Shown: positions 1,107-56,600, numbered from the stretch's first letter. The stretch is 64,000 nucleotides of DNA from a virus (IMGVR_UViG_3300035527_000189:2889-66888), one strand, 5' to 3'. The notes: generated from the sequence alone by a model not told the origin. Numbers and translations are program-made.

Positions 1107-1112
1107 ATTAAA

Positions 1113-1133: not shown

Positions 1134-1164
1134 GTTATTAAATTAACTTAAAGGAGGTTCTTAT

Positions 1165-1359: not shown

Positions 1360-1370
1360 TAGGTAATTTT

Positions 1371-3773: not shown

Positions 3774-3802
3774 TTATGTAGTATAAAAGATAGGAGTATA
3801 AT

Positions 3803-4918: not shown

Positions 4919-4932
4919 GGAGGAATAACTAA

Positions 4933-11495: not shown

Positions 11496-11560
11496 TATAT
11501 AAATTAGTGCTTATATTGTAAGTGTTAGTTTATTAATATGTTTATATGCGAGGTTGTAAT

Positions 11561-13057
11561 ATGGTGAGTTATAAAAGTAAGTTATGTGAACTTTGTGGTA
11601 AAGAATATAATCCTACAAGCCCAAAACAAAAATATTGTATTGATTGTAAAGATGAGGGTAGAAAGTTAGCAGATCGTAAACGTGATAGAAAACGAAGTAG
11701 AGTTAAAAATAATTATAAAAAGTATACAAGAGTATGTCCATCTTGTGGTATGGAATTTACTACATATTATTCTAAAAAGATCTATTGCGGCGATTATGGG
11801 TGCGATGTTGATAGAGTAAGTGTTAAAAATAAACGTGGGCATAAAAATAGAGATAAACAATATCTTATAGAAAAAGGCAAGTGCTATTATAATGAGAACC
11901 GCGATTCTTGTCTTTTGAATAAATCAAAAAAATATAGAGAATCACACCCAGATGCCCCGCCATATGTACCTGGTAAAGTACATAAACACCCTATAGATTA
12001 TATAAAAAGGTACATTAGTGATCGTGGTTATACTTTATTGTCTGATAAATATGTAAATTCTAAAGAAAAGATACTTTTGAGATGCCCTGAAGGCCATGAG
12101 TGGGAAACCACATTTCATAATTTTAGAGATTTAAGTGATAGTACTGGTAATAGGTGTATGGTTTGTTATAGCCAAAATAACTATATATCCAGATTAGAAC
12201 AAAAAATAAGAGATTTTTTTGAATGTAAACTTCCTGATGTAGAAGTTATATACAACGATAGAACTCAGATAGGCCCTAAAGAACTTGACTTGTATTTACC
12301 TAAATATAATTTAGCTATAGAAGTGTGCGGACTTTATTGGCATTCAGACACCGCAAATAATATACATCGTGGGTATCATTATGATAAAATGATCTCATGT
12401 AAGCAAAAAGGTATAAGATTAATTACATTGTTTGAGGATGAAATAAATAAAAAATTTGATCTTGTTGCATCTAGAATATTACAGGCTATAGGTAGGGTAT
12501 CTAATCGTATTTATGCCAGAAAATGTGTAGTACATGAAGTACCTAATAAAATAGCTTCTAAATTTTTTGATAAAAATCATCTACAAGGATTTTGTCCCGC
12601 CAGAAAGATTTTTGGTTTATACTATAATTGTGAATTAGTAGCTGCTATGTCTGTAGGTAATGTCACTAGAAATCATGCTAATTTAGGAAAAACTCTGGAA
12701 TTGAAAAGGTTTTGTTCTATTAGTGGTACTACTATTATAGGCGGGGCAAGTAAATTATTTAAATATGTAGTTTCTTATGCTATAAATAACTCATATGATA
12801 ACATTAAGTCTTATTGTGATATGAGGTACGCAAATATTTTTAATCCTGTTTATGAAATATTAGGGTTTAACTTATTATCAGAGACTAAATATACCCCACA
12901 TTACTTTAAATCTGGTGTGCGTTATAGAAATATGTCATTACGTAAAACATCTAAAGAACGTCTTACAGGTAAAACTGAATTAGAACTTCGTTTAGAACAA
13001 GGTTATAATAGAATATGGGATTGTGGTCATAGAACATACCTATATACATTTAACTAA
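11561..13057 (+). CDS. Free-standing Hef-like endonuclease (Zn fingers + Vsr/DUF559-type PD-(D/E)XK + C-terminal domain)
   Basis: CxxC fingers, CPEGH Zn-ribbon, ELDLYLPKYNLAIEVCGLYWH, ELKRFCS..GGASKL, RIWDCG; RBS gaggt favours ATG 11561. Confidence 0.7.
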   Translation: MVSYKSKLCELCGKEYNPTSPKQKYCIDCKDEGRKLADRKRDRKRSRVKNNYKKYTRVCPSCGMEFTTYYSKKIYCGDYGCDVDRVSVKNKRGHKNRDKQYLIEKGKCYYNENRDSCLLNKSKKYRESHPDAPPYVPGKVHKHPIDYIKRYISDRGYTLLSDKYVNSKEKILLRCPEGHEWETTFHNFRDLSDSTGNRCMVCYSQNNYISRLEQKIRDFFECKLPDVEVIYNDRTQIGPKELDLYLPKYNLAIEVCGLYWHSDTANNIHRGYHYDKMISCKQKGIRLITLFEDEINKKFDLVASRILQAIGRVSNRIYARKCVVHEVPNKIASKFFDKNHLQGFCPARKIFGLYYNCELVAAMSVGNVTRNHANLGKTLELKRFCSISGTTIIGGASKLFKYVVSYAINNSYDNIKSYCDMRYANIFNPVYEILGFNLLSETKYTPHYFKSGVRYRNMSLRKTSKERLTGKTELELRLEQGYNRIWDCGHRTYLYTFN

Positions 13058-17107: not shown

Positions 17108-17127
17108 GGGGTTTGTTTAAAAATATT

Positions 17128-29770: not shown

Positions 29771-31195
29771 ATGCCAGCAAAACTGACTATTGAAAAGGTA
29801 AGGAAAGAATTTAAGGATAAGGGTTTTGAGTTGATTACTGATACTTATATCAATTCAAGGCAGTTATTTAGATTCAAATGTAGTTGTGGTAATGAGTCTC
29901 AAATGAGACTTGATCACTTAAGACAAGGAGTCAAATGTGCTTATTGTTCTGGGAATAAAAAACTAACAATAGAACATGTTAGGAAAGAACTGCTTAAAGA
30001 GGGATATACATTAGACAGTACTACTTATACTAATAGTGCTACTAAATTTAATTATACTTGCCCAAAAGGGCATAAAGGTAGTATTAATTGGAATAATTGG
30101 GGCATAGGTCATAGATGTTCAGTGTGCTTTGGTACTAGTAAATACTCTACTGATTATATAAAAGAAAATTTGGCGGAAGAAGGATATCAACTTATTGATA
30201 AAGAGTATTTAGGTAATAAATATAAATTAACACTTATTTGTCCCAACAAACATGAATATAAAGTGTCTTGGGATAATTGGAAAAGTAAAGGATCAAGATG
30301 CCCTAAATGTAACGAGATAGGAATTTCAAAACCAGAAAAAGAAATTCAGGATTTCTTAAAGAGTTTCGATATTAGTTTTAGAACTAATGATAGACTTTTA
30401 ATTAAACCATATGAATTAGATATAGTAATTCCTTCTAAAAAGATAGCTATTGAATACTGTGGTTTATACTGGCATTCCGAAATTTTAGGTAAGGATAGAA
30501 AATATCATTCACTTAAATTAGATAAATGTTTAGAGAGGGGCTACAAATTAATAACTATTTTTGAAGATGAATGGTTGAGTAAAACTGAAATAGTTAAAAA
30601 TAGATTAAGAAATCTTTTATTTGATTATAATAATCTAACTACAGTATATGCAAGAAACTGTGTTGTTAAAGAAATAAGTAGTAAAGTAGCAAAAGAGTTT
30701 TGTATTGATAATCATATACAAGGCTATGCTATTAGTAATACAAGATTAGGTTTATTTTTAAAGGATGAATTAGTATCAGTTATGACATTTGCTAAACCAT
30801 CATTAAGTAAAGGACAGAAGATTAGTAAAGAATATGTATGGGAATTATCTAGGTTTTGTTCTAAATCAGGTTTTAGGGTTATTGGTGGAGCATCGAAACT
30901 CTTGAAGTATTTTGAGAGGAATTATGACTGGTCAGAGATTTTTTCATATGCTGATAGAAGATGGTCTGATGGTAATTTATATGATAAGTTGGGGTTTGAC
31001 TATATTAATACTACTAAACCTAATTACTGGTATTTTAAAAATAATACTAAAAGATATCATCGTTTTTCTTTAAGGAAAACAAAAGAAGACATTAAAGAAA
31101 TGACAGAATGGGAAATTAGAAAATCACAAAATTGGAATAGAATCTGGGATTGTGGAAATTTAAAATTTAATAAGACAAAGGAAAGGTTTGCCTGA
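29771..31195 (+). CDS. Free-standing Hef-like endonuclease, paralogue of 11561
   Basis: Three C..GH / CP..H Zn-ribbon repeats, ELDIVIPSKKIAIEYCGLYWH, ELSRFCS..GGASKL, RIWDCG. Confidence 0.7.
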   Translation: MPAKLTIEKVRKEFKDKGFELITDTYINSRQLFRFKCSCGNESQMRLDHLRQGVKCAYCSGNKKLTIEHVRKELLKEGYTLDSTTYTNSATKFNYTCPKGHKGSINWNNWGIGHRCSVCFGTSKYSTDYIKENLAEEGYQLIDKEYLGNKYKLTLICPNKHEYKVSWDNWKSKGSRCPKCNEIGISKPEKEIQDFLKSFDISFRTNDRLLIKPYELDIVIPSKKIAIEYCGLYWHSEILGKDRKYHSLKLDKCLERGYKLITIFEDEWLSKTEIVKNRLRNLLFDYNNLTTVYARNCVVKEISSKVAKEFCIDNHIQGYAISNTRLGLFLKDELVSVMTFAKPSLSKGQKISKEYVWELSRFCSKSGFRVIGGASKLLKYFERNYDWSEIFSYADRRWSDGNLYDKLGFDYINTTKPNYWYFKNNTKRYHRFSLRKTKEDIKEMTEWEIRKSQNWNRIWDCGNLKFNKTKERFA

Positions 31196-35622: not shown

Positions 35623-38600
35623 TTGGCTACCAATGAAATTGTTGTAAAACACAACATCAATTCTGCAAACACAACTGGGGGTAGATCTCCAGAAATCTCA
35701 AATAATAATAATTTTAAACAAATGCTTGCTTCTTTAGAGAAGATGTTTTCAGGTCTTCCAAAGGAGATAGCTAAAGATATAACTCGTGCTATTATGCCTG
35801 AAGTGGTGAGACTTGTATCCAAGAGTATTGGTACGTCTTCAGGTGGGGCTACTGGTGTATCTAAAGCTGATATTACTAATTTGGTATCTACTGTGGCTAA
35901 AGAAGCAGCTAGACAGGCTACTAGCCATTTAGAGAAATCAGCCAAGTATGGTACTTCTACAGGAAATGCTGGAAGGCAACCAAATATTGCTTCTTTTTAT
36001 GCTAGTATGGATAAGCGTGTTGAGAGTATAATGAGTTCCCAATTATCTTCTCTTAAACAAAAAGGTATAAAATTAGAGTCTTCTACTGAAAAGGCTATTA
36101 TAGCTTTAGCTCAACAAGCTACACGCTCATCAATACCAAATGATTTCACTTCAGCTGTCAAGGAGATGTCGTCTGCTGTAAAGACTTTAGGTGCTTCTGG
36201 GTCTGAGATACATAAGGCTATTAAGGCTATTGGAAACCTTCGTACTAGTGGTGGCGGTTTAGATTTTAAAGAGCTGATACCTTATCTTTCAAATACAAAA
36301 AATATTGGTAAAGATTTAAAAAATACTCATGAGGCAGTAAAGAAAGTTTCTTCAGCCATTGAAAAATTACCCAGTGATTATAGGAAAAGTTTTTCTGATG
36401 TACTTACTGAATTAAAATCTTTAACTGCTGAAATTAAAAAAGGTTTGGTTGCTAAAGTTAGTCAGACAAGGGCTAAAGCCCAAGACGACCCACAGAAATT
36501 TGCTACTGCAATAGCTAATCAACTTAAGAAAGCTCTTGATTCCAGTCCTGCCCTTCAAAATACTCAGTTGGCCAAAGCTGTTGATAAAATGGTTAATGGG
36601 GTAGCTGATATTTCTTCATTACAAAAAGCTATTAGTAAATTTTCTTCTGAATTGGCCCAAATTAAAGGTGCAGATCCTAAAAATATTAGAAGTGTAGAAC
36701 AGGCCATTGATAAGATGGAAAAAGTTTTGATAGCAGCCTCTAAAATAACTATTGATGGTGGTGCTATTAAGAGCAAACAGTGGAAGAAATATGTAGATCA
36801 GTTTGACTCAATGATATCTAAAATGTCGGACGCTATAGTTAAAGTTAGACTTGTGTTTGATGATTCTGGTGTTCTTAAAGCCATGGCCGAATTTAAAGAC
36901 AAAGAGTTCAAGGTTACTGCTAAAGCGGATACAAAAGAAGCTAAGAAAAAAATTGATAGTGATATAACTGATAGAGAGGTAAAAGCTGTTGTTGTAGCTG
37001 ATACTGGGGCTGCAGAAAAAGATATAGATAAAGCGACTAAGGACAGAACTACTAAATTAATTTTAGAAGCTAAAACCAAAGAATCTAAATCTGTAGCAGG
37101 TATCGACAAAAGAATAGAGAATATAGAAAAAGCGCTTGATAATTTTTTCACTGTCCTTGGTAAATACTCTTCTGATAGAAAGAGCCTTGAATCTAATATT
37201 CAAGGTAAAAAATATTATAAAGGGAATTTAAATGATTTAAGTGCAACTATGCAAGGAGACTACAAGTCTCTATTTGATGAATTTAGTAAAGAAGTAAAAT
37301 CACGTAATTATGGTTATTTAAAACCTAGGATTCAACGGGAAATGGCCCCTGTGCATTCTTCCGAAAATTATCAGCATTTTCCTAAAGAAGTACAAAAAGC
37401 TTTCGAATTACTCAATTCTGCATTAGAGGAAGCTCCTCAAAGACTTCTTAATAAAGTTTCTAAAAAGAGTACTTCATCTGATAAGGAGCTTGTTAATGCT
37501 CTTAAAGACTTGAAGAAAGAATTAAAAAATATTGGGGTAGCATCTGATAATTCTGATATAGTTAGAGAGGTTAAGTCTTATGGGGCTTCGCTACTAAGTA
37601 AATTAGAGGCCGCAGGTAAAGATGTTGAATCTTTAAAATCAATAATTAGGAAGGAAGGTGGGATCACAAATTATGATGGCCAACTTTTTTCTTCTTATGT
37701 TAGTGATGGCGTAAAAAATGCTATTTCTTCTGTAAGAGATATAGTAGAAACTAGATCTACTGATAGTAGTAAGGCTGCAAGCAAAGAAGCTAAACGTATT
37801 AAAGACGGTATTAAAGAAACTGCTAATAATTTTACTGAGGCCTCTAGGATTATTGCTGATTCCACAGAGAAACTGAAGAAACAAGCTGGAAGGTCTGGTG
37901 TTGGGGATGGTATGGCCTCTAAAGGTGGTCTACCACAAGGTCTACCTTCTGGTTCTCCTTTATTTAATACAAAAACACAAGGTAGTAACTATTATAATTA
38001 TGGTAAGCAACTTATTAATCCAAATATGTCAGGGATAAGTTCTAGAGATGGTGAAGTTACTACAAAAGGCGGAGAGGAAATTAGAAAGGTTGTTAGTGAG
38101 AATGTTAAAGGTCTTTCTAAATCTTTATTTGAATTACAGCAATATATAGTTGATACCCTTGATAAAGAGCTTAAAGCTTCACACAATAAGATTGGCGGAA
38201 ATGAGTGGAAAATAGTAAGAGATCATGCTAAACAGAATATTAATGAATATTTCAAAATAGCTTCTGGTTATAATAAAAAAATGTCTGGTAAACAATGGAC
38301 TTTGCAAATCGCAGACATTGACAGGCTGAGGAGGACAGTCGGTGATTTTGATCCAAAAAGCACACCTACATCTTTAATAAAACAATTTAAAGAGCAGAAT
38401 TTTAGAAATCTAGTTTCTAAAAACGAACAACGTTTGCCCGAAGCAATTAGTGGTTGGATGAAGAGGTTTTCTGAAGCCGAGATTAAATCCTGGGATAATT
38501 TACCGGAACTTGTAGTTAAAAAACTAGCTAGAATAAAGAGAACTACTGATACTGGTCCCGGAATTTCTGAAAAGATGTTAAATGCTGTTACAGAGTTGGG

Positions 38601-41600
38601 CCAAGATCAGTTAAAAAGTATCTATAAGCAAACCATTAGTGAAATAGATTCAATTCAAAAATTAACTGGTGGATGGACAGAACAAAATGGTGTGGATCAA
38701 AGTCCTCTTGTTAGGAATGTATCATTACCTGCTGCCAGATTAAACCCTACAGGTGCAGCAACATTTGAAACAGCACAAGGTAGCCAAAGAGTAATACCTA
38801 AATTTGCTGTTTATAAGACTGGTTTTGAAGAGCTTTATGAGAAACTGCATGAATCTGGTAACTTAAAATTAGATAAAAAATATGCTGAAACTATTAAATC
38901 TGGAGGAATACGTCCAGATCCTTCCCAATTTACAGAATTTAATAATTTAGCTGAAAACATGTTAAGAGATCTGGCTTCGGCCCCAGGTAAAGAGGATGAG
39001 GCGCTTGGTTTTATTAAAGGCCAGTATAGGAAAGCTTCAAAGATTAGAGGGGCTGAACTAAAGAAAACAGGCCAAATAGATGATATAAGTGCTTTTAATA
39101 AACAAATTGAGGATGCATTTTCAAAAACCCATGGTGGTTTAGATAATTTTATGGAAGCAATGGAAAATGTTGGGGTTTCGGCCTACGATGTTGCTAAAAG
39201 CATGGAGAAAGTAGAATTTAAAGATATATATCAGATGTTCAAAAAGTTAATATCTGGTGCTGGAGATCCTAAAAGTAGTCCTTTAGTAGCATTAGCTGCT
39301 AATCCAAGTTATGATAGAAATATACGTGATTACGAAACTTACATGCGTAAATTAGTAGGTACAATTCCTATAGCTGATCCTAAAAAACCACGTAGATATG
39401 CTCATCAAGAACGTGTTATTAATCTCATGTCTATGGCTTCTCCAATATTTGAAGGTGGAAAAGGTGAAGGCTCAGGGGCTTCTGATTTTACTTCAGATCA
39501 ACAGAAAGAGTTTATTAGAGATCTTAATCTTTCTTTGAGAGACTTTATCAAAAATAATGAGGTATTGGGTGAAACTCGTGGCCTTCCTAAACATATAAAG
39601 AATATTTCTAGTTTAGGGGTTCCTGAAGCTCAGGCAGCAACTCTAGATGAATATAGAAAAACTGCTAGAAATGAAGATACTAAATATTTAGGTACTTTTA
39701 ATGCTACTAATTTAAAAATGTATACTGATAATCTTGCTGAAATATCTCCTTTTGGGGCACAATTTCAGCAATTAGGGCGTAATATCGCTAGTACAACAAA
39801 TGCTATGTCGGCTTTTAAAGTCGGTATGGAGAGTACTGATTTTCCAAAATTAAGATCAGAAAAAGAAGACTCATTAATTTCTTCTGGCCGATATGGGGGA
39901 GAGGGTTATGGTTTTAATGTTATTGCTGAATTAAGAAACACAGCCAGTACTTTTGAAGATCAGATACTTGTTTCAGGTAAATTAGCAGATGTTATGACTG
40001 AATCTGTTAAGACTATTGTAGGTCCTGATGGGTTAGGCAGGTTGGGGGATCTTGCAAATTCAGGTCTTCTTGATAATCTTGATACTGCTGCAGTATCTAA
40101 TATAGAAGCAAAAAAGTTAGTTAAATTAGTTGGTGATGCTGATAGAGTTTTTCAGGAAGTTCTTGGTGTTAAGTCTGAATATAAAGGAAGAGCGGACGAG
40201 GCTCTTATAAAAGATGTAGGTAAGATGATTACTGTAGTGAGAGGTAAAGAACTTAATGTTCAGACTGCTAAACTAGCTGAAACTTTTTTGAATTACTATG
40301 GTAGAAAATTTACTACCAGATTTGGTTCAAAGGGTGTCTCTGTTACTCCTCAAGGAGAGGGCACCGAATTTGGTAGAATTTTAAAAGAATTTCCTGACAA
40401 AAAGATTAAAGTACTTTCAAAGTCTGAAGCTGAAAAGGCTGGTTTAGGTACTGCGGTCTTGCCAAAGAGTATGGGTAAGCTACTTGATGAAATTCTTGAA
40501 AAAAATGCAAGTGAACTTCAATCTAAAGGTTTTACTGGTGTAGAAGTTGGTGAGTTGCAAACAAATCTATTAAAATCAGGCAATAAATTTATTATGGATA
40601 TGTTTACAGATGCTTCTTTAGGGGTTGTAACTTCAGATGAGGCTGAACTTAATAAAACGTTGTTTAATAAGATAAATAACGCTTTAAAGACTTTAAATCT
40701 CGGCGAGATAGATAAAAATATAGAAGGTATAAATCAGATAAAGTCTTTATATAAAACACAGATAGGTGAAAAAGATGCTAAACTTTTTGAGGAGAAACCT
40801 ATAGATATAAGAATAAGCTCATATGGTGCTGCTAAACGTGGACTACAGACGGAAACTCTAGAGACTATAATGAATAATGTAATTTCTGCTGGAGAGACTG
40901 GATCTACTGTTGTTAAGGATAAATTTGATAAGTCAGTTTATAGAAGTTTATTAGGTACAGCCACTGGCAGTAAAGAAGATCCCAAAAAGTTTCCAAGTTT
41001 AAGTGAATTTAGTAAAGCTTTAGGTTTTGAAGGGGCTGGTAAAGATAAGAGTCAGATTAGTAAAGATCTTTTTGAGACTTTTATGTCAAAAGAAACAAAG
41101 GGTGGGACTGTCTCTTTAATAGACAGAGATCAGTTTGTAAAAGATTATACCAAAGAAATGTCTGGTTCAATAGATCCTGATAAGTTAGAGTCTGAATATC
41201 AAAAGGCTGTAGCTTCAGCAGAAGATGTTTTGAGAGAAAAAGCTGACAAACTTGCTGAATTGGAGGCAAGATCTAACTATTATACAAGTGTTATAGATGA
41301 ATTCGGTGATGCCAGAAAAGGCCTTGTTGGTTCCAAGTTTGTAGAGATAGTTGAAGATCCGCATAAATATGATGAATGGTCAAAGAAGGATATTGAGAAA
41401 CAAATAAAGGGTGAGAGGTTGAATATCCCTGCGTTTGGAGCATATGCCTCTATTTTTGGTGAACAGTCTGAATTTATGAAGGACATGTTGGGGAATGTAC
41501 CTACAGAATCTAAAAAACATTGGGAATATATAAAAGCACTTCAAGTACTTAATGAAGAATCAGCAGAGATGCGTAAGAACTTGTTATCGTCTGCAAAAAA

Positions 41601-44600
41601 AGTAGATGTAAGTTCTTTAAAATCTTTTACTAAATCTACTGGTACTTTTGTTCCTGGTTTAGATGAATCTAGAAGTTTATCGGATACAATATTAGATGCT
41701 GATAAGTTTCCAGGCCCAGTAGATTTATCTATTCCTAGTACAATGGACCCGTCCAAAAGAGAATCTTTTTATGTTCCTGGAGCAATAGCCAGAAGTACTT
41801 ATCCTGAACCAACTATTGCTGGTGAAAGGGGCCTAGATTTAATTTCTAGACGACTACAACAGGTTGTTAATGCTGCTAAAAAAGTAGATGAATTAATGAA
41901 TTCTAAAGAGCGTGGTGAAGGTAGTGTTAGGAAAGATAGGACTATAGGTAGAGTTAAATCTAACATAAATAAACTACGTGAAGAGGCACGTGAAATAGCT
42001 AAACGTACACCTAAAAAAGAAATGACACCTCAAGGGGATGCACAAGCTATACAAGATATTATTGATAGTTTAATGCCTGTAATTTCTGGGTACAAACCTG
42101 ATCCAGATTTAACTATAGGTTATAACCAATGGAATGATGCTGCTAAATATATTGAAAATGTAAGATCATCTCAAATGGCTAAAGTAAATGCTGGTGAAAA
42201 AAATGTAGGGGAAGCTTTATACTATACTTTAGGCCAGGTAGTTGATGTTATAATAGGTGCTGATCCTAAAGGATCTTCATCTGAAAAAAGGAAAGAAGCA
42301 TCTTCTATGTTAACTGAGAAGGTAGCTCTTGGACAGAATGCTTTAGAGCAGTTTTCCAAAAAATTAGGTATTACCCCTCCAGAAGGTGATGAGGATAAGA
42401 TTATAAATAATGCTCTTGATAGTTTAGAAAAAGCTAAAATTAAATACTATCATTCTTTAGCAGAGACGGTCCTTGGTAAAACCGGTTCAATTCAAGAATT
42501 TGTATTTACCAGAAAAGTCCCAGCTATAATGAGTAAAGCTGTAACTGCTGTAGTAGATAAGACTAAAGAGTTTAAATCTTTGGAAGATTCTTTGAGAGAT
42601 GTTGCTGAAGGGGCTAGCAATTTAGGTATAGAAACTAGTTTAAAGGGCCTTGAAGAAGCAGCAGATGAATTACGCCAAGTTAGGTTTGAACATTCTGAAG
42701 ATATTAGAAAGTTATCTAAAGACAAAGGTTTACCTGTATTAAAACAACATGAGCTTGGTGTTCCTAAAGAGCTTGCAGAAAAACTACCTGTGGAATTTAA
42801 TAGAAAGGCATCATTTGACTATAAACTTGGGGAATTTAAATTTGATGAAAAAGGTACAAAAGAAGACACTACTCTAGACGTTTTACTTGAGCATAGGGAT
42901 AAGTTAAAAAAAGCTTTAAGTAAAAAAGGCTTAAAGGTAGGAAAAAAGACTATAAAAGTAGAAGACGAGATTAGAGGGGAAGTTGAGAAATACATTAAAG
43001 CTGAATTAACTCCTTATGTTGAAAGTGTTCGTTATCCTTTTACGGGGATATCTTCTGTACAACCATATGAAGCAAAACTTTTAAAACCTAAAAAAGGTGA
43101 AAGACAGTTTGAGAAACATTCTCTGATAGTACCAGGTATCCCTGAAATGGATTTCCAGGCTTTTGATAAAGTTAAAAGTTCTGTAGAACAAAATATTGAG
43201 TCTTTAAGAGGTGAGAGGGAGAAAGAATGGAAAAAAATTACTCCTGATACAGATAAAATAGAAAAGTTAAATATTGTTATTGATCGTCTTTCTCAAGTTT
43301 TATCAGATGCTATACCAAAATACATTGCACATCAACAAAAACTTGATTTTGATGGAGATCAAATAGAAATTCATTCCGCAAAAACAGCTAAAGCCAGAAA
43401 AGAGATAGAAACTCATTTTAAAACTCTTATTGATTATAATATTAACAAGGGAACCACAGCACAAGTTCTTAGGGATGATTTTACATATGATGCTATGGTA
43501 CCTTCTACCGGCAAATATCCTATTGCTGAACAAGCGATGGCATTTAATAAAAAGTTTAAAGAGTCTGAAGGTTTTGGTTTCTTACAAAAGCCCTTTTTAA
43601 CAGAAGATCTGGAATATTTATCCAAAGAAGAACGGTTAGGTATTCTATCTTCTTTCCCATCGGCGGCAACTGGAAAACCACGTGGACCAGTAACTGCTTT
43701 AAATGAAGCAGCATCAGCGGTAATAAGAGATCAAGGACAGTTATCTAAACTTGATGATATAATTTCTAATGTTAGTACTGTGGATGCCTCTGGTAAGAAA
43801 CTAGATGATTCAGAATATATTTCTAAATTACTAACTACAGTTGAGAAGGCCGATAGTAGGTTATCTAAAATACTTGAGGCTTCTGTTAGAGATAGGCTCT
43901 TTGAGTCAAAGTTTTTAAACACAATAAATGCCCAGTTATTTAAAATAAATACTGGTCCTGATACTGAAGCTCTTAATAGAATCCTTAAAATATTTGAAAG
44001 AAGTCTGGGTTTTGGATCAAAAGGCATTATTGGTACTCCTAGTAAAGGGCGTTTAGGTTTAGATTATAATCCTTCAGAATCTCTATCTGAAATGTTTCCT
44101 GAAGATTTGAAAATTTTTAAGAGTAAAGATTCAGATATGATGGGTAATGAGCTTCATACTATGATGAATGAAATTATCCGTGTTGCTTTTCAGAAAGGTA
44201 TGGATGTTAAACATGCAGGCGAAGTTCCTATTGCTACTGAAATGTATGAACTTTTAACACAAGGGCAGACTGGCCTGGAAACTTTAGTAAAAAAGATTAA
44301 TGAGGATGATTCTTATGCCGATATAAAATCTTTAAAAGAAGTAAATGAAACTGCTTTAAAAAGAAGAATGGGGGGCCTTTCTACTGAGGACATAAGGAAA
44401 GACGCTGTTAAAATAGCTACTAGTAGGGGGGAAGATCCAGAGACTGCTGGATTAGCATATGCAGATAGAGATACCTTGAAGACTTATATTGTAGAAAAGT
44501 TAAATCTTACTAATTTTTTATCAGAAATAACCAGACAGGTTGAGCAAGCAGCTTATGATGGAATAATTGAGCAGATTAAATCATGGGATATTAAAACAAG

Positions 44601-47600
44601 AAGTAAAAAATTAAAGGGTAAAACCCCTGAACAATTCGCTAAAGATACCATAGCTACACAAATGAAAGACGGTGGATTAGATATTAAAGGTATGGCTGAG
44701 GGTGGATTAATGCCGTTATATAAGTATAGAACTATGGGTTCTTCTTTGTATAAACAACGAGGGGAATATCAGAATAAATATGGTGATGTGGATGCTTCCT
44801 TTCTAGAAGGTAGATTTAAAGGTAAACCTGATGAATTAAAAGAATATACTAAAAAAATTAAAGAAGCTAAAGCATTAGCTAGAAACCTAAAAGACGAGTT
44901 TTCAAATTTTAATATATATGATTCAGGTGACAAAGGTAGTTATGCTATGTTTGTCCAAAGTGCTATAGATAATGTAAAGTCAGATAGTGAGGAAATTAAA
45001 AGGCTTGTAGCTCAATTAAATGAAGAAGAAGGTTTAATGGATTCTAGTGTTTTAGATAGGGCTTTAGGTAAATCAACACGTCATCAGTTTACAAGAGATG
45101 TGTTTTCTGAACCTAGTGATAAAGCTTCAGAAAAATACCTTGAAAAATATAGTAGAATAGTGGGTGTTCCTAGTTTAGGTACAGAATCTAAAGCACGTAT
45201 ACGTAAGAAATACCTTGAAGGTGCTGCAGTAGCAGCTGAACAACGTGTAGCTATGAGAGAAGATTCGAGAGAAACCTACAAAGGAGGCCCCGAAAAATAT
45301 GATCAATTAGTTGAACAAGAGACGGAACAAATTCTACGTGATGTAATTAAAGTTGCACAAGCTGATCTTATATTAAGGGCTGCTAAAGCTAGAGCTACAG
45401 AATCTAGATTTGTACAAAATATGTTTGGTGAAACTGTTCCTCCTGGAAAATCTAAATCTGAATTATCTAGTTCAAGAAGGCAAGAGATTTTAGATCAAGC
45501 TAGAGATATGTATGCAACTACTATCACTGGTTATGGCCAGCAACCTCCAGGGATAGGCGGGACTCCAGGCATGGCTTCTGGCGGTGGTAAGAGATATCAT
45601 GGTATGGGTGGCTCTGGCGGTTTATTATCAGGAGAAGGTCCTATTCCAGTACATATTGCTAGTATTGAAAATGGTGTTGGTCTTATTATTGGAGGCTCTG
45701 GGGTAGGTGTTAATGCTTCAATGTCTCCACATACAAGTAAATTAGATCATCCAATGTTTACATCTGATTTAATAAAGGATATTAAACGTGCCCGAGAAAT
45801 TGCTTCTGAATTAACTGGTGGATTAAACGAGCTTAAGGATACAACTTATGAGTTTAAATATAGAGCGAGTGGACTTAAAGGAGGGGCTGGCCGTAACCAA
45901 ATAGATGAGATAGCCGCAGTTATGGCTGGTGCTGAAGAAGATAAAGCTATTTTAGATGCCTCCTCTTTAAGAGGAACAGCTATGCATGCAAAACTTGAAC
46001 CTAGATACAAGGCAGCAAAAATATCAGGTTTGAAAACTTATACTGAAGAACCTGTTAAATATGAAGACCCTAAAGCTGGATTAATCACTGGTACTGTTGA
46101 TGTTTTAAGGAAAGATTTAGATGGTGTAGTTCAGGAAGTTATTGATATTAAGACAGTGAGTCCTGAAAATTTCAAAAAGCTAAAAGATGCTGTAGATGCT
46201 AGTGGATCTATTAAATTTGAAGATGTTAAGAAAGCAATTCCTGATATAAAAAAGAATAAATATTTAAGAAATGAGAAACTAGATGAGGTAGCTTCTCAAT
46301 TGAATTTATATTTAGCTTCTCAAAATAAAAATGCTAAAGCAGAAGCTCATTTCTATAATGCTTTAGATGATTCTATGAGTGAGGTTGTGGCAATTCAATT
46401 TGATTTTGATGAAAAAAGACTTGAAGCAGATATGAGTGCAGTTTCAGCTGCTCGTGAAAAAGTTAAAGATTCTGCTTTAGGGTTTGCCAAATCAGGTTCA
46501 TTTGAAGCATCTCAAAAAGCTGTTGAAGGGGTAGATAAAGCTAGGAAAGATAAAGGCGAAGAGTATTTCAAAAAAATTGAAGATGAGCTTATGGCCATAG
46601 GTAAAAGATATTACGAATTAATTAGGGAGAGAAAAGCCTATGGTGTTGGTGCTCCTGCTATGCCGTCTAGAGGGGGTATATCAAAAGATGAATTGAAGAA
46701 TCTTTGGGCTGCCACAAGGAATCAGACTAAGGGTTTAGATCAATTTATTAAAGCTAATCCTAGAGTATCTGGTGATGAAACTATTCCAGTGTCTCAAAAC
46801 TTAATAGCATTCCATCAAGCTGCAAAAATGATGCAAGCTCAGGAGGGGGTATCTTTAGACCCAGCAACTCTTGATAGCATGCGCCCAGAACTCAAAGGTA
46901 TTATAGATAAAATACCGTCTGAAGGTAAAAAAGGGATCGAATTTACCGAAGCGGTTAATAAATTAGTAGATGAAAATAAAATCAGTCGTACTGAAGTAAA
47001 TAAAGCTTGGAAGACATATAGAGTAGCTGTAGGTGATTATTATGTTTCAATGATAGAAAAAGCTAAACAAGAACTAGCTAAAGCTCAAGAAAGCGGGGAT
47101 TTAAGAGCCCAATCTACTAAATATGTAGATTTTGAGGTGGCAGTTGCTAATTTCCAGGATTACATTCGTTCTAGTTTAGGTAAAGGTACGGACATATATA
47201 CAAGAGATAAGAGATATATGACACCTGAACTTGCAAAGGGTGCTAAAGTTTATATGGACCCCCAGTCTATAGCTAAGAAAGCTTCGACTGAGTTAGGGGA
47301 CAATGAAAAACTTAAATCTATATTTGATAAAGTGGTTGATGTAAGAGAGGGTGAATACCCTATACCTCAAGATGCTGTTAGAAAGATGTTAATTGAGCTT
47401 ACTAATATGGATAAAGAGCTTGCTAAAGTTATTGTAGATGCAAGGGAGGTTGCTCAGTTAGGTCCAGAAATTGTTAAAGCTTGGGACTTTAGTCAGTTAA
47501 GGGTAGGGCTAGCTAGATTAAAAGCCGCTATGCAGAAGTACATGACTGGCCCATTGCATGAGTGGGATGCTGAACAAAAAGAGTATTTAACAAAAGTATT

Positions 47601-50600
47601 GAAAAGGATTAAAGTTTTAGAAGACCTTTATGGCAATATAGATATATCACAAACCGGAGAAAGCGGTTTTCGTACAGGAACTACTGGTGTAGTACCTGTG
47701 CCTAAAGAATTACTTCCTAATGAGCAAAGGGCTTGGCACGAAAGAAATTTAGAGATGGAACGTTTGAGGTTTTCTTTACCTGAAGAAGAGGGTGGGCCAA
47801 AGGAAGGAGCAGTTAATAGTTATGATTATAAGATTTTTGGCCAAAACAATAGAGTTATAGAGAACCATAAACACATGTTTGAAAAGTATGGTGATGTTAT
47901 GACTGAAACTGGTCAAAAAATCGGCAGGTTTAATGAAAAACATCGCGATCTTATTAAGGAGATGATGGCCGGCAAAAGGCCTTTTTCTGTTGCTATAGAG
48001 CGTGTTGTTAAATGGGGTGCTGCCGCCTCTTTAGTTTATGGTAGTATAAGGGAATTAAAGGATACTTTAAGTCATATTGCTGAAGTTGAATATGCAATGG
48101 CAAAACTATCTATGGTAATGAGTCCAATTTCTACTGATTTTGATAAAATGCAAAAGTCTGCTATATCTTTTGCTAAATCTTATGGTGTAGGGGTAGAAGA
48201 TGTGTTGGAAGGTATGAGGGTGTATGCTCAACAGGGTTTAGGGCAAGAAGAGGTTATAGACAGGACTAGAACTTCTGTAGTTGCTTCTAATATAACAGAG
48301 CTTGATTCTAGTGGTGCTACTGAAGCTTTAACAGCTGCCATGAAGATTTTCCGCCAAGAGGGTGAGTCATCTATGCGGTTTCTTGATTCCTGGAGTAATG
48401 TTGAGTCTAAAGCGGCCATTAAGGCAGGGGATTTAGCCGATGCAATTAAAAAATCAGCTGCGGCTGGTAGGAACGCTGGTTTTACTTTTGATGAATTGAA
48501 TGGTATGATTGCAGCTATTGGTTCTGTAACTCGTCAGACTGGTAAAGAGGTAGGTACTTCTTTACGTTTTATTTTTAGAAGGTTGACAACTGATAAAGGC
48601 CCTAAAGCCTTAAAAGCCCAGGGCATTGATATCCTTGGTGATAAAGGAGAACTAAAAGCTGGATTTGATATTTTGTCTGAACTTGCTGCTAAATGGGATG
48701 AATTAACAAGGGCTGAAAAACTTAATATTTCTCAAGCTATTGGTGGAACTAGACAATATAATGCACTTTTAACCTTGATGGATAATTGGGGCGAAGCTCA
48801 AAGAAGTATTAAAAACAGTATTGAGTCTAAAGGATCAGCTGAACGAAGAAATTTAGCCCTTATGAAAACTTATACTAAGCAATTAGAAAAGACTAAGGCC
48901 GCTTTCTCGGAGCTTAAAATTTCTATAGGTAAAATTGTATTACCTACCTTTAAAACCGGTTTAAAAGGTTTGAGAGGGTTTGTTGAGGTTGTAAATGATA
49001 TTCCAGGCCCAATAAAAGCTGTTACAGCAGCATTAATAGGTTTATATACTTATATAAGTAAAGGCCAGGGATTATTGGATAAGTTTAGTGATATATTTGG
49101 TGGTGTTGGAAGTTCTATGGGCTCAATTCAGGACAGTTTTAAGTTAAATATGAAACGTGGGTTATATGAAGGTTTAGGTATAGGCAATAAAGAAACCAAC
49201 TCCGCGCTGTATAATTTGAATAAGATAGGTGATCCCGGAGCAAATGGATTTAATAAGTTTGAATCTTCTGTTGGGGATATGGCTTATTTAACAGCGTCGG
49301 CTTTTAAGGGGATAAATAATTTTATTGGTGTTACCACAGATGAAACTGGGAAAGCTACTTCAGCAATAGGTGAGTTGGCAGAAAAAATATCAAATATGTT
49401 ATCCAAAATCGGTATGATTGCTGGTTTAGCTCCCATCCCTGGGATACTTGATGAGATAATAGCAGTTGGTACTACTGCTGCTTCAGTTCCTTTAGATTTT
49501 TTTGGTGATACTACTAAATGGGTTGGAGAAAATGTGTCCAAAAAAGCCCAAGGGTTTTTGGATACATTTGCATCTGAAAATACTGGTTTGGTAAAAGCAG
49601 CAGTACCTTCTTTAGCTCTTGGTACAATCGGGGCACTTGCTTTACCTAGTCTTGTAAAGTCCTTTAAAACTTTAGCTGAAAGTGCAGAAGATTATAAGGA
49701 AGCTCAATATGATATTATTGTTTCAGAAGAAAAACAGTTAGATGTTTTGGATGAGTTAATAGGTAGATACGATAAATTATCTGAAAAAAGAAAGAATATT
49801 ATAGAAGAACCAGTTTATAGTAAAGATATAGGCGAGAAAAGAAGAAAGATTTCAGTGGATGAATATAAGAGCCCACTATTAGAAAGAGTTAGAGTTGCCC
49901 GTGAATTTAGAGATTATCAAAATGATTTGGCAAAAATAGCACCGGAATTAGTAGCTGGTTTTGATGAGTTTGGTAATGCTGAAGTATATGATACAGAAAA
50001 GATAAGATCTTATTTAAAAGAACTTGAAAAAGTGCAAAAGTTGCAAACCTCTATGCGTTATGTGGATATAGCTGGCAAGTTTGCTGAAGATCTTACAGAA
50101 ACTGGTGGAGTACAAAATAAGAAGAAATTTTGGAAGGATGTGTCTAAAGAGATTCCTTTAGTGGGAGGCTTATTTGAGGATCAGATAAAGTTAGGCCCTA
50201 AAAAAGCTTTATCTATAGTCCAAGACGAAATGAATCGTTTGAATATAGCTAGAAGAGAGAACCCATTTACAAAAGCTTTTGATAAAGATTTAGAGTCTTT
50301 AAGTAAAGCTTTAGTTAAAGCCACTGAACACTATTCAGATCAGATTGATGAATTTCAGAAAGCCATAGATAATATATCTGCAGAAGGTTTAGATACTGAT
50401 CGTGTGGTAGATATGCTTTCTAACCCTAAAATACTAAAAGGTTTTGAAGAGGTAGTTATTCCTTATTCTGTTGAATTAAATGAGCCAACCATAAAAGGCA
50501 GAGTTAGTACTGAAGATGTATTAGCTTCTGAAGTTTTTAAAAAACTAAAACCTGAACTTTCTGGTGTTATATCACCTATAGCTGATCTTACTATGGCCAA

Positions 50601-53600
50601 ATTTGAAGAATCTGGTATAAAGAGACGTTTACCTGATGCTTTTGGAAAAGTTGATTTGAAAGCAGGTGATTATGTGGCTTTTACGGATGAATTTGCTGAT
50701 AAATACAATATAGCTAGTAATCAGGCTTTTGATACTATAGTTGAAGGGGATAAGGTAAGATTTAAGTATTTTAACGAGACCCTCAAAGAAGTAATGATGA
50801 CTGATTCTGTAGATAGTTCTGATATCGATGGTATAGTTAAGGCTGTTTTTCCAGTCAGAGAAATGATAAATAAGATGGAAGATGAGTTAGTTAAATTAGA
50901 TGTTTTTGTTACTGGTGCTGCGGCAGGTATTCCCGGGCTGTCCGATAAAATGCTTAAAAAGAGAGAGGTTGATTTAGGAGCAAGATTTTTTAGTGGGATA
51001 AGTACTAATACACTGTTACAGACCCCTATGGGTTATGATATGAGAACCGGTGAGTTGTCTAAAGAAGTTTCTTATAAAAAAGGTTGGGATGATGATTTTA
51101 TTAATAGTCTTTATAAACCAATTCAAAAATATAAGAGTTTGTTGGATGAGGTGCGCGCCAGTACTTCTGAACCGGATAAGTCTATTTATGGAGAGGCTAA
51201 AGCTGAACAAATTGAGTTATATCAAGATTTGATAAAAAATAATCAAGCAACTTTTCAATTTAGGGCGGCATTGGTAGATCTAGGTAAAGAACTTTATAAT
51301 ACTAGAGATGAAGTAGAAAAAAATATTCAGGCCGAGAAGAATAGGCAGATTGTGCAAAAGAATACCGCAGGTTATCTAAAGGGTATATCTAAAGGATTGG
51401 ATTCTGTAGATGTTGGTATAAGAGATTATGAGGATCTAAATGTACAACAACGTACATTGTTAAATAATGATTCTTATTCACAAATGGTTAAAGATTTGAT
51501 AACTTCTGAAAAGAGGTTGGAAGGTTACAATGAACAACTTATAAAAATTGCTTCAACTGCCCAGGATCTTGAAAAAATAAAGGACGTTAATTCTGCTTGG
51601 GGCGGAAGGTTTGAGACAGAAGAGCAGTTTAGCAAATGGAATAAAATAAAAGAGCGTACAGGTGGGGATAGAGGAGCTACAGAAATAGTTACAGCTGTGC
51701 ACAGGGTGAAAGATGATACGTCAACAATGGTTGAAAAGCTTGACACTTTAATAGGTGTTGTATCCGCTCCTGATGAAGAAACCAAAGAAGTTATTTTAAG
51801 TACTAATAAGGCATTAAGTAAGGCAATTGAAACAGCACCACAAACTGAACATGAAAGAATTTTCTCTACTAAGGGTATCCAGTCAGGCTGGCACAAAGGT
51901 AAGTTTGTTGAGGGAATTCAGAACCTAATGGCCATAAGGGATGACGAAGTTGTTAGTTCTGGTGCTAATAGTAAGGTGGCTGCTAGGATTGATAATATTG
52001 TTAATAAGTTTTTAGCTGAATATATGAATAGTTTTGGTATTGAGAGGACTACTAAGGAGTTTGCTCTTAATAGTGACATACCAGGTAGTCGTTTAAATAG
52101 AGGACAGTATATGGGTCGTGCTCTTACTGGTATGGGTATGACGCCTGATAAATTAATTAATGTAATAGAAAGATCGACAAAATCAAGTGGCCCAAAGTCT
52201 GATATAGCTAAAAGTATATATGAGAGTAAGGAGTATGGTAATTTTATAAAAGCCTTAGGTAAAGAACGGAATGAAGTTTCTGGTTTGGTCAAAGGTATTA
52301 ACAAAGCCACAGTTTTTGCAACAATACAATCACAATTTGCTAATGTGGAGTCTGATAAAAAAGTAGCTGAATTTACCAAAATTGTTTCTGATCTCAAGGA
52401 TCAACGTAAAGCCAGAGTTATAGAATTAACTAGAATTAATAAACCATTGGAAGGTGACACCAGGCTGGAAGGTTTAGATGAAAAAATTAAAGCCAACCAA
52501 ACAGTTCTCGATGAATCAAAGTTAGATAGATATATCTATGGTACTGCTAGGGATTTATTTGCATTAAATTCTGTTGCTATTAACGCTACTCAACAAATGG
52601 AGGCCACCCCAGCACAAACTGTGCAAGCAATGACAGCTATCACTGGTGTGTATGGTTTAACTAAGGTTATTTCGGCTGTGTTTGGTGAAGAACTGCCTAA
52701 GTTTTTTGAAAAAGCTAAAGGTTCCATGGAAGAAATGCAGGAAGCTATGGCAGAAGGTAAATCTTTTAAAGATATAGGAGAGGATCAGAAAAAAGCCTGG
52801 GGAAAAGATGCTTTAGATTTTTTAGCTGCGATGCAGGATAGGATTAAATCTAAAAAAATAGATAAATTACCAGAATCTGATAAATCTAAAACTGAATCCC
52901 TAAAAGACCTTTCTGATGTAATAAAGGTAGAAAAACTTATAAAAGATGCCCAAGAGTCTTATAAAGCTGGTAAAACAGATCGCATCGCTAAAAAAGCTCT
53001 GGGTACACTTGTTGGTGCAGCTGGTGCTACATTAGCAGGATATGCTTCTAATCAAATGGGTTTTTCTGTAGAATTATCACAGAATACAGCAATAGCTGCA
53101 GATCAAGCTAGAGCATTGGCTGAGCTATTTAGAAAAAATGCTAAAGAATTTGATCAGTTATTTGCTATGGACAGGGAGAAACACCCAAAAGATTATGTGG
53201 ATGAGAAGGGTGAAGGATCAAAATTACCAATAAGTGCTGTAGATGTGGCAGAATCTTTTGAAAATAAAGCCCTAGCTTTAAATAAAGCTATTAAAGAGTC
53301 AGGAGAGATAATGACTTCTACTGAAAAAGCTACTATAGAAAGGGTTAAGGCTGAGCAAGAAGTACAGTCTATTATACAGGACAACATAGCATCAATGATG
53401 AGTTTTACTGAAAAACTTATGATTCTTGAGGATGTTACTAAAAAAATTAGGGTTGCTATTAATGAATTTGATACACAAAGAAAATTTAAACCCACTTTAG
53501 CTGTTGGAAATGCTTTAGTTGGGTATGGTGGGGACATTAATCTCCCATTATCTAAAGATAAAATGAGTACGCAACAACGTATTTGGTCGGAAGGCAGTGA

Positions 53601-56600
53601 AGTTTTACAGAATATATTAACTGACTATAAAAAACTTGCTATAGTAAGGGATAATTTTGCTGATCGTATTCCTATTTTAGAAGAAGACATATACAAATTA
53701 ACTAAATTTGTACCAGACAACCCAGAAACAGTGGCTCAAAAAGATACTTCTTTAGAAAATCTTAAGATTATTCTAGATGGTGTCGAAGCTTCAGCCGCTT
53801 TAGCTAATGAGGCTCTTTTAGATATTGGGGAAAATCTGAACCCGTTCGTTCAGTATTCAGATGCCTTTTATGAATTACGTAGATCTTTGGAATCTATAAA
53901 TGTAGATTCGGCTATTAGACAAATAGATAGATTAGGTGCTTATTTTGAAGGTATGGATAAATTATACGGAGGATCTCACCCTGATGCTCCTATTGCTATA
54001 TCTGAAGCCCAAAAATTTAAAGGTATTAGATCTGGAGTTTCTTTAAAAAATTTAGAATCTACTCAATATGATTTGAGAGAGTCTGAACTTATGGATCAGA
54101 TTATAAGAGGTAATTTAAGTGGTGATCAAAAAACTGAAGTATTAATGGAATATATTAATCTGCCAAAACAAAGAAAGCAGGATATAGAGAATTATAAATA
54201 TAGTAAAAGTATTGACTCTTTTAGAAACAGGATGGCCCCTTATGAAAAGTTTGCTATGGATATGGAAAGATTAAGGTTTTCTGGTCAAATTAATGAGAAT
54301 AATATTAAACCTTATACTGAAACACAGAGAAAATTAGAATCTATAATGAAAGCTGCTCAAGTGGAAATTTCTAAGGAAGAAAAATTAAAAGAGTTTGATA
54401 GTGCAGTTGCTGGGTTATCTGAAAGTGAGCGTGAGGATAGAGAATATGAATTAAAATCTAGAAGAAAAACTATTGAAGAAGGGCCAGATGTACAACGTCG
54501 TGGTCCAGGTCTTAATGCAGAGAGTTTATTAAGTGATTTTATAGGGCAATGGAGGGATACTATAAGTAAAAATCTTACAGGAAACGCTAAAGACCTTCTT
54601 GATTCTATTAAGAATTCAGGTGTACTTGAAAAAATAGATGTTTCTAATACCTGGCTAGAGCTTATAGCAAAATCATTAGGTGATAAAGGTTGGGGAGAAA
54701 CCCCGTATGATGTTGCAAAGGCTGTAGTAGCAGAGATTGAAGGAAAGCTAAAGGCAGTACCTATGAGAGAACGCCCCCCTGAAAAAGATGTTTTAGATAG
54801 TAAAACTGATTTAGAAAAAAAATATTCTAGAAGACCAGAGGCTGAATTTTTAGCCCCATTTGACCTAATTGGTGAAGCAAAGTTAAGTCCAAAGAAGAGG
54901 CTTCCTAGTGAAGTTGCTGAAGATCTAAACAAAGGTATACTTGATGTTATTAAAACAATGATTAATCCTAAATATGCATTAGCAGTGTTTGGTGCAGCCT
55001 CACTTTCTCCAGCTGCAGCTTATTCAGGCAAATTTTCTTCAGAGGCTGATCGTTCAGACGAAAAAGAAGGCACTCCCACGTTGCTTAAGCCTTTGAATGC
55101 CACACTTAAATCTTTAGGCTACGTTAAAAAAGCATTTGATTTTATGATGCCAAGTATGGCTGATTTTTCTTGGTTAGGTAAGACTGCTTTAGGTGCTGTA
55201 AAAAGTACTGTATCAGGGCCTAGTAGGGGCGATTTTTTGGAAAAAATACGTAAAGAGGATACTATTGCTCAAGTTAAATCAGACTATTCGAAACCTTTTA
55301 CTGATGATGATAAAAGCGAAGGTTGGTTAGAGAAAATATATAGTGGCATTAAAGAAATGTCTTCTAAACTTCCAGATAAAGATGAGTCACCTAACCAGGA
55401 AAAACCTTTTACTGTAGGAAGAGCCCCTGGTGGTTTGGCCAAACCTACTTATAATGAAATACTTAAAGCTCATGCAGTAAACGGTAAGGTTTCAGGCGAA
55501 GGTGATCAAGAATCAGATTCTGTTTTAGCACGCCTTAGTACCGGTGAATTTGTTCTGAAAGCTGATTCAGTAGAAAAATTAGGCATTGATGCGCTTGCTT
55601 ATATGAATAATACAGGTAAAATACCTCCCTTTGCGAAATTTGCTGAAGGTGGGGAAGTTGGATCGATATCTGAAAAAAATAAAGCATTGTCAGAAAAATA
55701 CAAAGGGGTTAAGTTTAATTTTAAAGACAATGAATATTTTAATTTGGATCAATATAACAAATTAGCCCCATATATTGAAAAGATATTAGATAAGTATCCA
55801 GAAATACAAGATGGATTAACAATTGGATTATTTGATGGGAACTTGCCTAAAGGACATGATCTTAAAGACTTCAAACATTCAACTCGTCTTGGGGCACATA
55901 CTGCAAGTAATGTAATGAGGAATTCGGATGGTAGTATTAATAGAAAGTCTAAAGTTCTTCTAAACAGTAGTTCTCTTTTTGATAAAAATAGTCCATTAAG
56001 ATTATATGATAGTTACGCTTACGATCCTATTAGTACTTTAATGCATGAGTTTGGCCATCGTAAAGATTTTATAGACCAAAGGTACTCACCAGAAAAAAGA
56101 ATAGGTGTTTTAGATAGATTGTGGGGTATACCGAAAAAAAATCTTACTCCATACGGTAGAGATAATTCTAATGAGGAAAGGTATGCAGAGATTTTTGCGT
56201 TACATGAAATGTCTGGAGATCCAGATCGTATAGATGCTTCTGGAGAACTCAAAGAGTCTATAGAAGAATTTCATAGCAAAAAATGGCCTGACATTGATCC
56301 GAGAACTAAGATAGATGGCTTGCCTTCTTTTGATTCTGGGGGTTTTGTAGCTAAATCAATAGATGAAAAAAATAAAGCGTTGTCTAAAAAATATCCAGGG
56401 ACTAATTTCAATTATAAAAAGAATGATTATTTTAATTTAGATAAATATAACCAATTATCTCCTTATATTGAAAAGTTTTTAGAAAGATACCCTGAAGCTG
56501 CTAAAGGTCTTACACTTGGGCTGTTTGATGGTAATCTTAATGAGAGTGATTTCAAAAAATGGAGTGATGAGGCAAGAGGGTTACACGATCCGGCCGGTGT

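Follow-up and report, generated by a model that had tools for sequence, protein, structure and literature searches.

A tape measure protein of large uncultured phages that carries a predicted single-chain two-barrel RNA polymerase

In the searchable literature the fusion of an RNA polymerase (RNAP) to a tape measure protein is described only for the Thermus phage P23-45 and for its near relatives among the Thermus phages, P74-26, G20c and TSP4. In P23-45, an Oshimavirus, the fused enzyme is gp96 (Chaban et al. 2024, PMC10770324; PDB 8H2M and 8H2N), a promoter-specific transcriptase whose fused form is the virion enzyme and which transcribes the pre-early genes, including the gene of a second, non-virion RNAP. 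The core of gp96 comprises about 800 amino acids (aa) and is flat and clamp-less with a short connector; the GenBank survey in the same study was filtered on the pattern [RK]xP-x{20,100}-DxDxD (PMC10770324). Here we analyze a window of 64,000 nucleotides, bases 2889-66888 of the 98,142-bp IMG/VR virus entry IMGVR_UViG_3300035527_000189 (about 37% complete by CheckV), in which a giant open reading frame (ORF) of 7,747 aa encodes a tape measure protein with a predicted single-chain two-barrel RNAP N-terminal of the tape-measure core. Its spacing from [RK]xP to DxDxD is 102 residues. A first-pass annotation of this DNA had proposed such a polymerase and named gp96 as its precedent, and the precedent is real (PMC10770324). 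Our literature search found no paper on this tape-measure-RNAP family; the "moraphage" lineage (PMC12619734) was considered as a possible identity and rejected, as it is contractile-tailed and no tape measure or RNAP was found there.

The decisive evidence for the RNAP identity of this module comes from predicted structures. The family alignment served to build an AlphaFold2 model of aa 1100-2010 (predicted local distance difference test (pLDDT) 74.6, predicted template modelling score (pTM) 0.68), which was compared by VIA-align with 48,161 representative PDB chains; the matches fall on model residues 97-816 (aa 1196-1915). The nine top-ranked chains are all second-largest RNAP subunits (Z 11.9-15.2, 206-346 residues aligned), namely the Xanthomonas β subunit, the β subunit of the plastid-encoded polymerase, subunits of Pol I, III and IV, those of African swine fever virus and vaccinia virus, and the non-virion RNAPs of phages AR9 and phiKZ, and with the tenth chain the score falls to Z 6.1. 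Rescoring of the top 1,000 Foldseek matches to this model left 251 chains with Z of at least 8 (best 16.2; typically some 300-350 residues aligned), the best 50 of the 251 being without exception Rpb2/β homologues; bacterial β chains account for 45 of the Foldseek top 50. A second model spanning both barrels (aa 1425-2624; pLDDT 79.1, pTM 0.48) retrieved β′ or Rpb1 chains at 49 of the top 50 Foldseek positions, and its rescored search yielded 534 chains with Z of at least 8, headed by 50 chains that are all RNAP largest subunits (Z 10.6-11.1, 246-289 residues aligned). Residues 554-1200 of this model (aa ~1978-2624) correspond to E. coli β′ 23-503 at 18-20% identity, within which aa 1978-2300 models as the N-terminal clamp core of β′; the archaeal clamp construct 3qqc is matched at Z 9.3. 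On these models, aa ~1978-2624 is the N-terminal clamp-core region of β′ together with its catalytic barrel, placed directly after the β-like module, and the order anticipated by the first-pass annotation, a β-type followed by a β′-type barrel, reappears as a predicted pair of RNAP folds. As Foldseek E-values against PDB are never significant singly, the argument lies in the exclusive and reciprocal make-up of the hit lists and in the gap in VIA-align Z-scores.

The large helical insertions that separate the motifs are equally real in the models of both barrels. Two helical hairpins inserted in the β′ barrel (~42544-42723, aa ~2308-2367, and ~43153-43311, aa ~2511-2563) are together predicted to form a four-helix bundle. 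They are the source of the dominant noise (ROP-like bundles, Z ~11) in the wide fold search with aa 1425-2624, which nevertheless contained 12 largest-subunit clusters among the helical bundles. Assigned fold within the RNAP module is limited to aa ~1196-2624; the flanks, aa 810-1340 and 2585-3200, gave no match to anything known in the Pfam scan and profile comparison, and aa 2585-3200 in particular resembled neither RpoC nor the free-standing phage RNAP described below, and had no Pfam match. A Foldseek search of viral predicted structures (BFVD) was uninformative.

The sequence motifs point in the same direction. All nine strings quoted in the first-pass annotation sit at the residues claimed for them in the giant ORF, beginning on the β side at aa 1374 (ISPF), 1385 (GRN), 1430 (GFNVIAEL), 1444 (FEDQILVS), 1560 (GRKFTTRFGSKGVS), 1726 (PIDIRISSYGAAKRG) and 1930 (GERL), and on the β′ side at aa 2278 (SLAETVLGKTG), 2373 (LKQHELGVPK), 2470 (RYP), 2478 (SVQPYE) and 2575 (DFDGDQIEIH). 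Each motif segment was aligned locally to E. coli RpoB and RpoC (from NC_000913) and judged against 300 shuffles. The claim that all nine match cellular RNAP in order stood for six, for which the canonical site is the best local match and the matches are colinear, and three of these six were equalled by at most four of the 300 shuffles. On the β side FEDQILVS finds FEDSILVSERV at RpoB 812-822, GRKFTTRFGSKGV finds GDKMAGRHGNKGV at RpoB 1063-1075, and PIDIRISS..KRG..LET falls on RpoB 1093-1115, the right place, though alone without significance. On the β′ side SLAETVLGKTGSIQEFVFTRKV matches RpoC 326-347 without gaps (equalled by 4/300 shuffles), PVLKQHELGVPKELAEKL matches PYLRLHQCGLPKKMALEL at RpoC 359-376 (equalled by none of the 300), and DFDGDQIEIH matches DFDGDQMAVH at RpoC 460-469. 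The remaining three, ISPF..GRN, GERL and RYP..SVQPYE, were not recovered by local alignment to E. coli RpoB and RpoC, and their equivalence is by inspection only. Across 52 homologues at 29-57% overall identity, no substitution occurs in the catalytic Asp triad, in either Lys or in the E-D pair. In the alignment of these 52, at 33-57% identity to the query, the invariant set comprises E1445, D1446, Q1447, G1560, K1562, G1568, K1570, G1571, K1738, R1739 and G1740 on the β side and R2470, P2472, G2475, D2575, D2577, G2578, D2579 and H2584 on the β′ side.

A transitive sequence link to recognized RNAPs is provided by a second polymerase. Of the five largest related records searched (86-100% complete), three, namely G001 (268,764 bp, 100% complete), G003 and G004, encode a free-standing single-chain two-barrel RNAP of 1,085-1,178 aa. 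These proteins bear WEDQ/FEDQ and DFDGD motifs, contain 15-18 cysteines, are 43-45% identical between phages, pass or nearly pass the cut-offs of PF00562 and PF00623, and match PHROG families of jumbo-phage RNAPs; they show no similarity to P23-45 gp64. The β core of the tape measure protein aligns with the free-standing RNAP at an hhalign probability of 96.7% (E = 3.9e-10, 234 columns), and the connector, aa 1888-2088, aligns to it colinearly (hhalign E = 9e-6). At the level of sequence profiles, this constitutes a strong indirect link between the tape-measure module and recognized RNAPs. The free-standing enzyme, which was not found in the relatives G002, G005, G006, G007 and G008, is likely a non-virion partner polymerase. 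Language-model neighbours of the module include viral Rpb1-domain-2 clusters, and those of its β part are tape-measure clusters only; a tblastn search against 50,697 GenBank phage records gave no match.

The RNAP module and the tape-measure core are physically fused in one ORF. The core contains a PF10145 domain (PhageMin_Tail, TP901 type) at aa 4177-4375 (48151-48747; E = 1.9e-26, a score of 93.6 bits where the cut-off is 33.2), followed by two hydrophobic membrane-type segments at aa 4596-4678 (49408-49656) detected by hydropathy scan, and the giant ORF matches 14 PHROG tape-measure families (best E = 2e-84). A database search recovered 53 homologues of 4.5-8 thousand aa (kaa) from JGI, ENA, Logan and NCBI assemblies, all with PF10145. 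The same architecture occurs at 46 IMG/VR loci and, among 1.84 billion cluster representatives, in 100; the RNAP invariably lies on the N-terminal side of the tape-measure core, and more than 90 independent metagenomic proteins share this layout. Remote relatives of 4.0-5.6 kaa are also present among the representatives, with DFDGD N-terminal of the core in all nine that have a tape-measure match. These remote forms keep both motif and order, so that the fusion extends over a broader superfamily in which the polymerases are more compact. In P0100, P0102, P0107, P0118, P0119, P0121, P0122 and P0126, of 4.0-5.6 kaa, the element upstream of the tape-measure core is DFDGD or one of its variants DLDGD and DYDGD.

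Metagenomic reads and contigs bear on whether separate genes had been joined by faulty assembly, the caveat attached to the first-pass annotation. The stretch 39742-43380 occurs in at least 24 runs labelled oil field metagenome (62-100% of sampled words), with no RNA run listed. Four runs that were not marked as the probable source yielded contigs that together cover 37000-56900 and differ from the window by substitutions but never by indels, and one independent contig spans 40054-48470, from the β barrel through DFDGD into the PF10145 domain. With independent contigs running from the RNAP into the tape-measure core free of indels, and with the architecture recurring widely, an assembly chimera is excluded.

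A further property of the protein is its lack of cysteine. None occurs in 7,747 residues, whereas the Cys content of neighbouring ORFs (1.2%) would predict about 93 (Poisson P ~3e-41), and 14 relatives (4.1-7.9 kaa and one 758-aa fragment) have 0-2 each. The zinc-binding Cys clamp is thus lacking, as the first-pass annotation had it, because there is no cysteine at all. Such a composition fits the extended passage of the chain through the tail tube and the envelope, and folding without zinc sites or disulfides.

In siphophages the C-terminus of the tape measure protein lies at the tail tip. By analogy with the known systems we consider it probable that the polymerase arrives with the virion, is anchored at the entry pore and transcribes early genes independently of the host. 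Since tape measure proteins belong to the virion and are expelled from the tail upon infection, the polymerase would be delivered together with this one. The N-terminal polymerase would lie at the head-proximal end of the tail, beside the leading DNA end, and would exit last because the tape-measure C-terminus is, on the siphophage analogy, at the tail tip. It may then fold or refold at a membrane channel formed by the hydrophobic tape-measure segments and transcribe the first-entering genes without host RNAP, and it might help to pull in a genome of ~230-270 kb. Later transcription could be taken over by the free-standing, Cys-containing RNAP of ~1,100 aa seen in three related genomes, as in P23-45.

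Some phage tape measure proteins undergo processing, and an alternative is that the RNAP is genuine but is cut away while the tail is being assembled or once the protein has been ejected, for instance at the Gly/Pro/Ser-rich linker (aa 3301-3360) that parts it from the remainder, to act as a free middle or late polymerase in the producing cell or free in the new host. A folded RNAP should not be able to occupy the tail tube, which would also suit cleavage. We regard this as unlikely, given that fusion and order are kept in about 100 clusters, the remote 4-5.6-kaa forms included, which points to a selected physical linkage, that the absence of cysteine covers the RNAP part as expected from a common translocation route, and that the fused form of the P23-45 enzyme is the one in the virion (PMC10770324).

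Several observations weigh against a virion-delivered early transcriptase. A folded polymerase of ~260 kDa would be too big for the tail tube, and its storage and refolding are hard to account for. No RNAP was found among PDB sequences by phmmer with aa 1300-2750 or with the family profile. PF00623 scores 20.3 bits, below its cut-off of 25.3, though it is matched in 40 of 54 family members, and PF00562 is unmatched in all 53 members in Pfam scans of the β core. Profile comparison by hhalign with alignments of proteobacterial RpoB and RpoC (80 genome loci) gave E = 9e-4 and 0.01 against 0.027 and 0.13 for the cross-controls; as only motif cores aligned, barely above these controls, and likewise against the single E. 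coli sequences, we dropped this comparison as evidence of homology. The β barrel itself is modelled at low confidence (pLDDT ~50-68), neither a bridge helix nor a trigger loop was recognized by profile comparison or Pfam scan, and the last 525 residues of the module match nothing. Finally, neither the window's own record nor an 89%-complete relative contains the partner RNAP; for the former this says little because that record is only 37% complete.

The low confidence in the barrels, the sub-threshold Pfam scores and the missing bridge helix and trigger loop would also be expected of a catalytically dead relic that now only adds length or plays a structural role in the tail. This we hold to be very improbable: the tested catalytic residues are all invariant at 29-57% identity while their surroundings drift, which therefore indicates purifying selection on the chemistry, and DFDGD is kept even in the remote 4-5.6-kaa relatives. 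Nor is it easy to favour the possibility that the fold was kept for another main use, as a DNA-pulling motor, a primase-like maker of short RNAs or an RNA-templated polymerase like QDE-1. The two-barrel fold does occur in RNA-dependent polymerases, no sigma-like or promoter-recognition element was identified, and the module flanks are without an assigned fold. Of the solved single-chain RNAPs considered (gp96, gp64, crAss gp66 and QDE-1), only QDE-1 is listed on the β′ side, at rank 27 (Z 9.4), and its match covers only 140 residues; the closest structures are DNA-dependent multisubunit RNAPs, the motif set, the β Lys pair included, matches that of transcribing enzymes, and the sole characterized tape-measure-fused enzyme is a promoter-specific transcriptase (PMC10770324). 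Such another use therefore appears improbable, and we retain the early transcriptase delivered with the tape measure as the preferred explanation.

Features of the giant ORF and of the free-standing RNAP genes in related records. Coordinates are those of the window unless a locus is named; residues are numbered along the giant ORF.
Feature	Coordinates	Strand	Basis
Whole ORF, tape measure protein P0001	35623..58866	+	7,747 codons, no internal stop, TTG start, no cysteine
Conserved RNAP module, aa ~800-3150	38020..45072	+	BLAST coverage over 53 homologues
Predicted β-like (second-largest-subunit) fold, aa 1196-1915	39208..41367	+	VIA-align, Foldseek, hhalign
β barrel motif GYGFNV..TFEDQILVSGKLA	39904..39987	+	E1445, D1446 invariant; RpoB 812-822
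β barrel motif GRKFTTRFGSKGVS	40288..40350	+	K1562, K1570 invariant; aligned to RpoB GDKMAGRHGNKGV 1063-1075
β motif PIDIRISSYGAAKRGLQTETLE	40792..40872	+	K1738, R1739, G1740 invariant; RpoB 1093-1115
Predicted β′-like fold, aa ~1978-2624: clamp-core-like N-terminal part and catalytic barrel	41554..43494	+	VIA-align, Foldseek
β′ motif SLAETVLGKTGSIQEFVFTRKV	42454..42528	+	RpoC 326-347, ungapped
β′ motif PVLKQHELGVPKELAEKL	42733..42792	+	RpoC 359-376
β′ motif VRYPFTGISSVQPYEAKL	43018..43092	+	R2470, P2472, G2475 invariant; equated with RpoC NRAPTLHRLGIQAFEP by inspection only
Metal-binding motif KLDFDGDQIEIH	43324..43392	+	D2575, D2577, D2579, H2584 invariant; PF00623 sub-threshold in 40/54 members
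Gly/Pro/Ser-rich linker C-terminal of RNAP module, aa 3301-3360	45523..45702	+	Composition scan
Conserved domain, aa ~3420-3630	45880..46512	+	Kept in most homologues; earlier label RecB/PD-(D/E)XK-like is motif-based, putative
Tape-measure core, aa ~3720-5330	46780..51612	+	Pfam, PHROG, hydropathy scan
Two HExxH motifs (HEFGH 6808, HELGH 7026) in paralogous C-terminal domains	56044..56712	+	Motif position
Free-standing RNAP gene, record G001	L131:1215-4520	-	
Free-standing RNAP gene, record G003	L132:835-4089	+	
Free-standing RNAP gene, record G004	L133:1001-4534	+	

Other parts of the giant ORF include putative nuclease-like and metallopeptidase-like domains, assigned from motifs and weak matches. 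The conserved domain that follows the linker has no Pfam support and gave only a weak ASCH match (E = 0.003), and the C-terminal HExxH domains gave weak metalloprotease matches (phrog_87, E = 0.0013; PF13582, E = 0.045). Contigs from two runs contain, at 56218-56898, a joint that goes back 681 nucleotides inside the paralogous HExxH pair, the members of which lie 654 nucleotides apart; the copy number of this tandem pair may be variable, or it may be ambiguous in assemblies. Within the tape-measure gene a segment of about 1 kb (51025-52034) is also present on a different contig in two other oil-field runs, with the same foreign flanks in both and with a depth about four times higher in run X11, which suggests a mosaic segment common to another phage population.

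The remainder of the window belongs to a phage structural module with all genes on the plus strand, comprising a portal-like gene, a head protein, a fibre of 2,066 aa and two homing-endonuclease-like genes; the portal, head protein and tail fibre are upstream of the giant ORF. The fibre ORF (17113-23313) carries an Mtd_N domain at its N-terminus (PF18454, E = 4e-9), matches tail-fibre PHROGs, and is likely a receptor-binding fibre. The two homing-endonuclease-like ORFs, at 11546-13057 and 29771-31195, are paralogous (phrog_559, E = 1e-76 and 2e-124), and the latter also bears a Mom-like domain (PF25680) together with CapR and Vsr-type endonuclease signatures.

These observations indicate that the joining of a presumably injected polymerase to the tail ruler is widespread and reaches beyond a single Thermus phage. 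Some 100 sequence clusters from large uncultured phages, with tape measures of 4-8 kaa, show the RNAP fusion, and the polymerase described here is far nearer to the cellular β/β′ design than is gp96. This suggests that linking genome injection to transcription by way of the tape measure is a solution of general use, which has possibly evolved more than once. More tentatively, and with distinctly less confidence than we place in early transcription from the virion, we propose that the fusion arose here independently and convergently from a near-full-size β/β′ polymerase, not from a minimal enzyme of the gp96 type, that it defines a widespread superfamily of 4-8-kaa tape measures in large uncultured phages, and that the Cys-free enzyme of ~260 kDa passes through the tail unfolded and regains its fold at the host membrane, where it initiates and perhaps drives the entry of the genome. 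The family is a natural system in which to ask how a multidomain enzyme of very large size might be stored in extended form, cross a channel a few nanometres wide and fold with neither cysteines nor zinc. It also implies that surveys stating "no RNAP" in huge phages may overlook polymerases hidden within structural genes.

Among virion-packaged RNAPs in general, the two-barrel gp66 of phi14:2, a crAss-like phage, and the T7-like vRNAP of N4 resemble the present enzyme in being part of a very large polypeptide and being injected for early genes (PMC10770324). These are capsid or cargo proteins and not tape measures, the N4 vRNAP differs in fold, gp66 is absent among the structural matches of the module, and there is no sequence similarity; the β-side fold lists contain none of the solved single-chain RNAPs gp96, gp64, crAss gp66 and QDE-1. 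The closest parallel in gene organization is P23-45 gp96, in which, as here, a DFDGD two-barrel RNAP with its β-type barrel before the β′-type barrel stands N-terminal of tape-measure, membrane and metallopeptidase parts in one giant ORF; a second, free-standing two-barrel RNAP is encoded in P23-45 itself and in three relatives of the phage described here. However, the two fusions have no sequence similarity, as judged by hhalign of the family profile against gp96 1-1300 and by phmmer at maximum sensitivity against 126 family proteins. With ~2,350 aa the module is about three times larger than the ~800-aa core of gp96, its barrels lie ~900 aa apart, and its connector, unlike that of the clamp-less gp96, models as the β C-terminus followed by the first ~500 residues of β′, clamp-like elements included. 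The hosts of the two fusions also differ, P23-45 being an 84-kb thermophilic phage, whereas the present one is mesophilic and low in GC, and its relatives measure 230-270 kb.

In place of gp96, which does not appear in the structural match lists, the searches retrieved multisubunit RNAPs. This agrees with the earlier impression of unusually many cellular motifs, the fold-search lists being filled by multisubunit β and β′ chains. Unlike these enzymes the present one is a single chain inside a structural protein, without cysteine or zinc sites and with large helical insertions in both barrels; its β′ C-terminal half is much reduced or unrecognizable, no alpha, omega or sigma partners were identified, and sequence likeness is confined to short motifs. 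The cellular and jumbo-phage multisubunit RNAPs (E. coli RpoB/RpoC; AR9 and phiKZ) nonetheless provide the closest folds (β Z 13.6-16.2, β′ Z ~11), and as in the cellular enzymes the canonical motifs follow in canonical order, with β running straight into β′ in the manner of natural rpoB-rpoC fusions.

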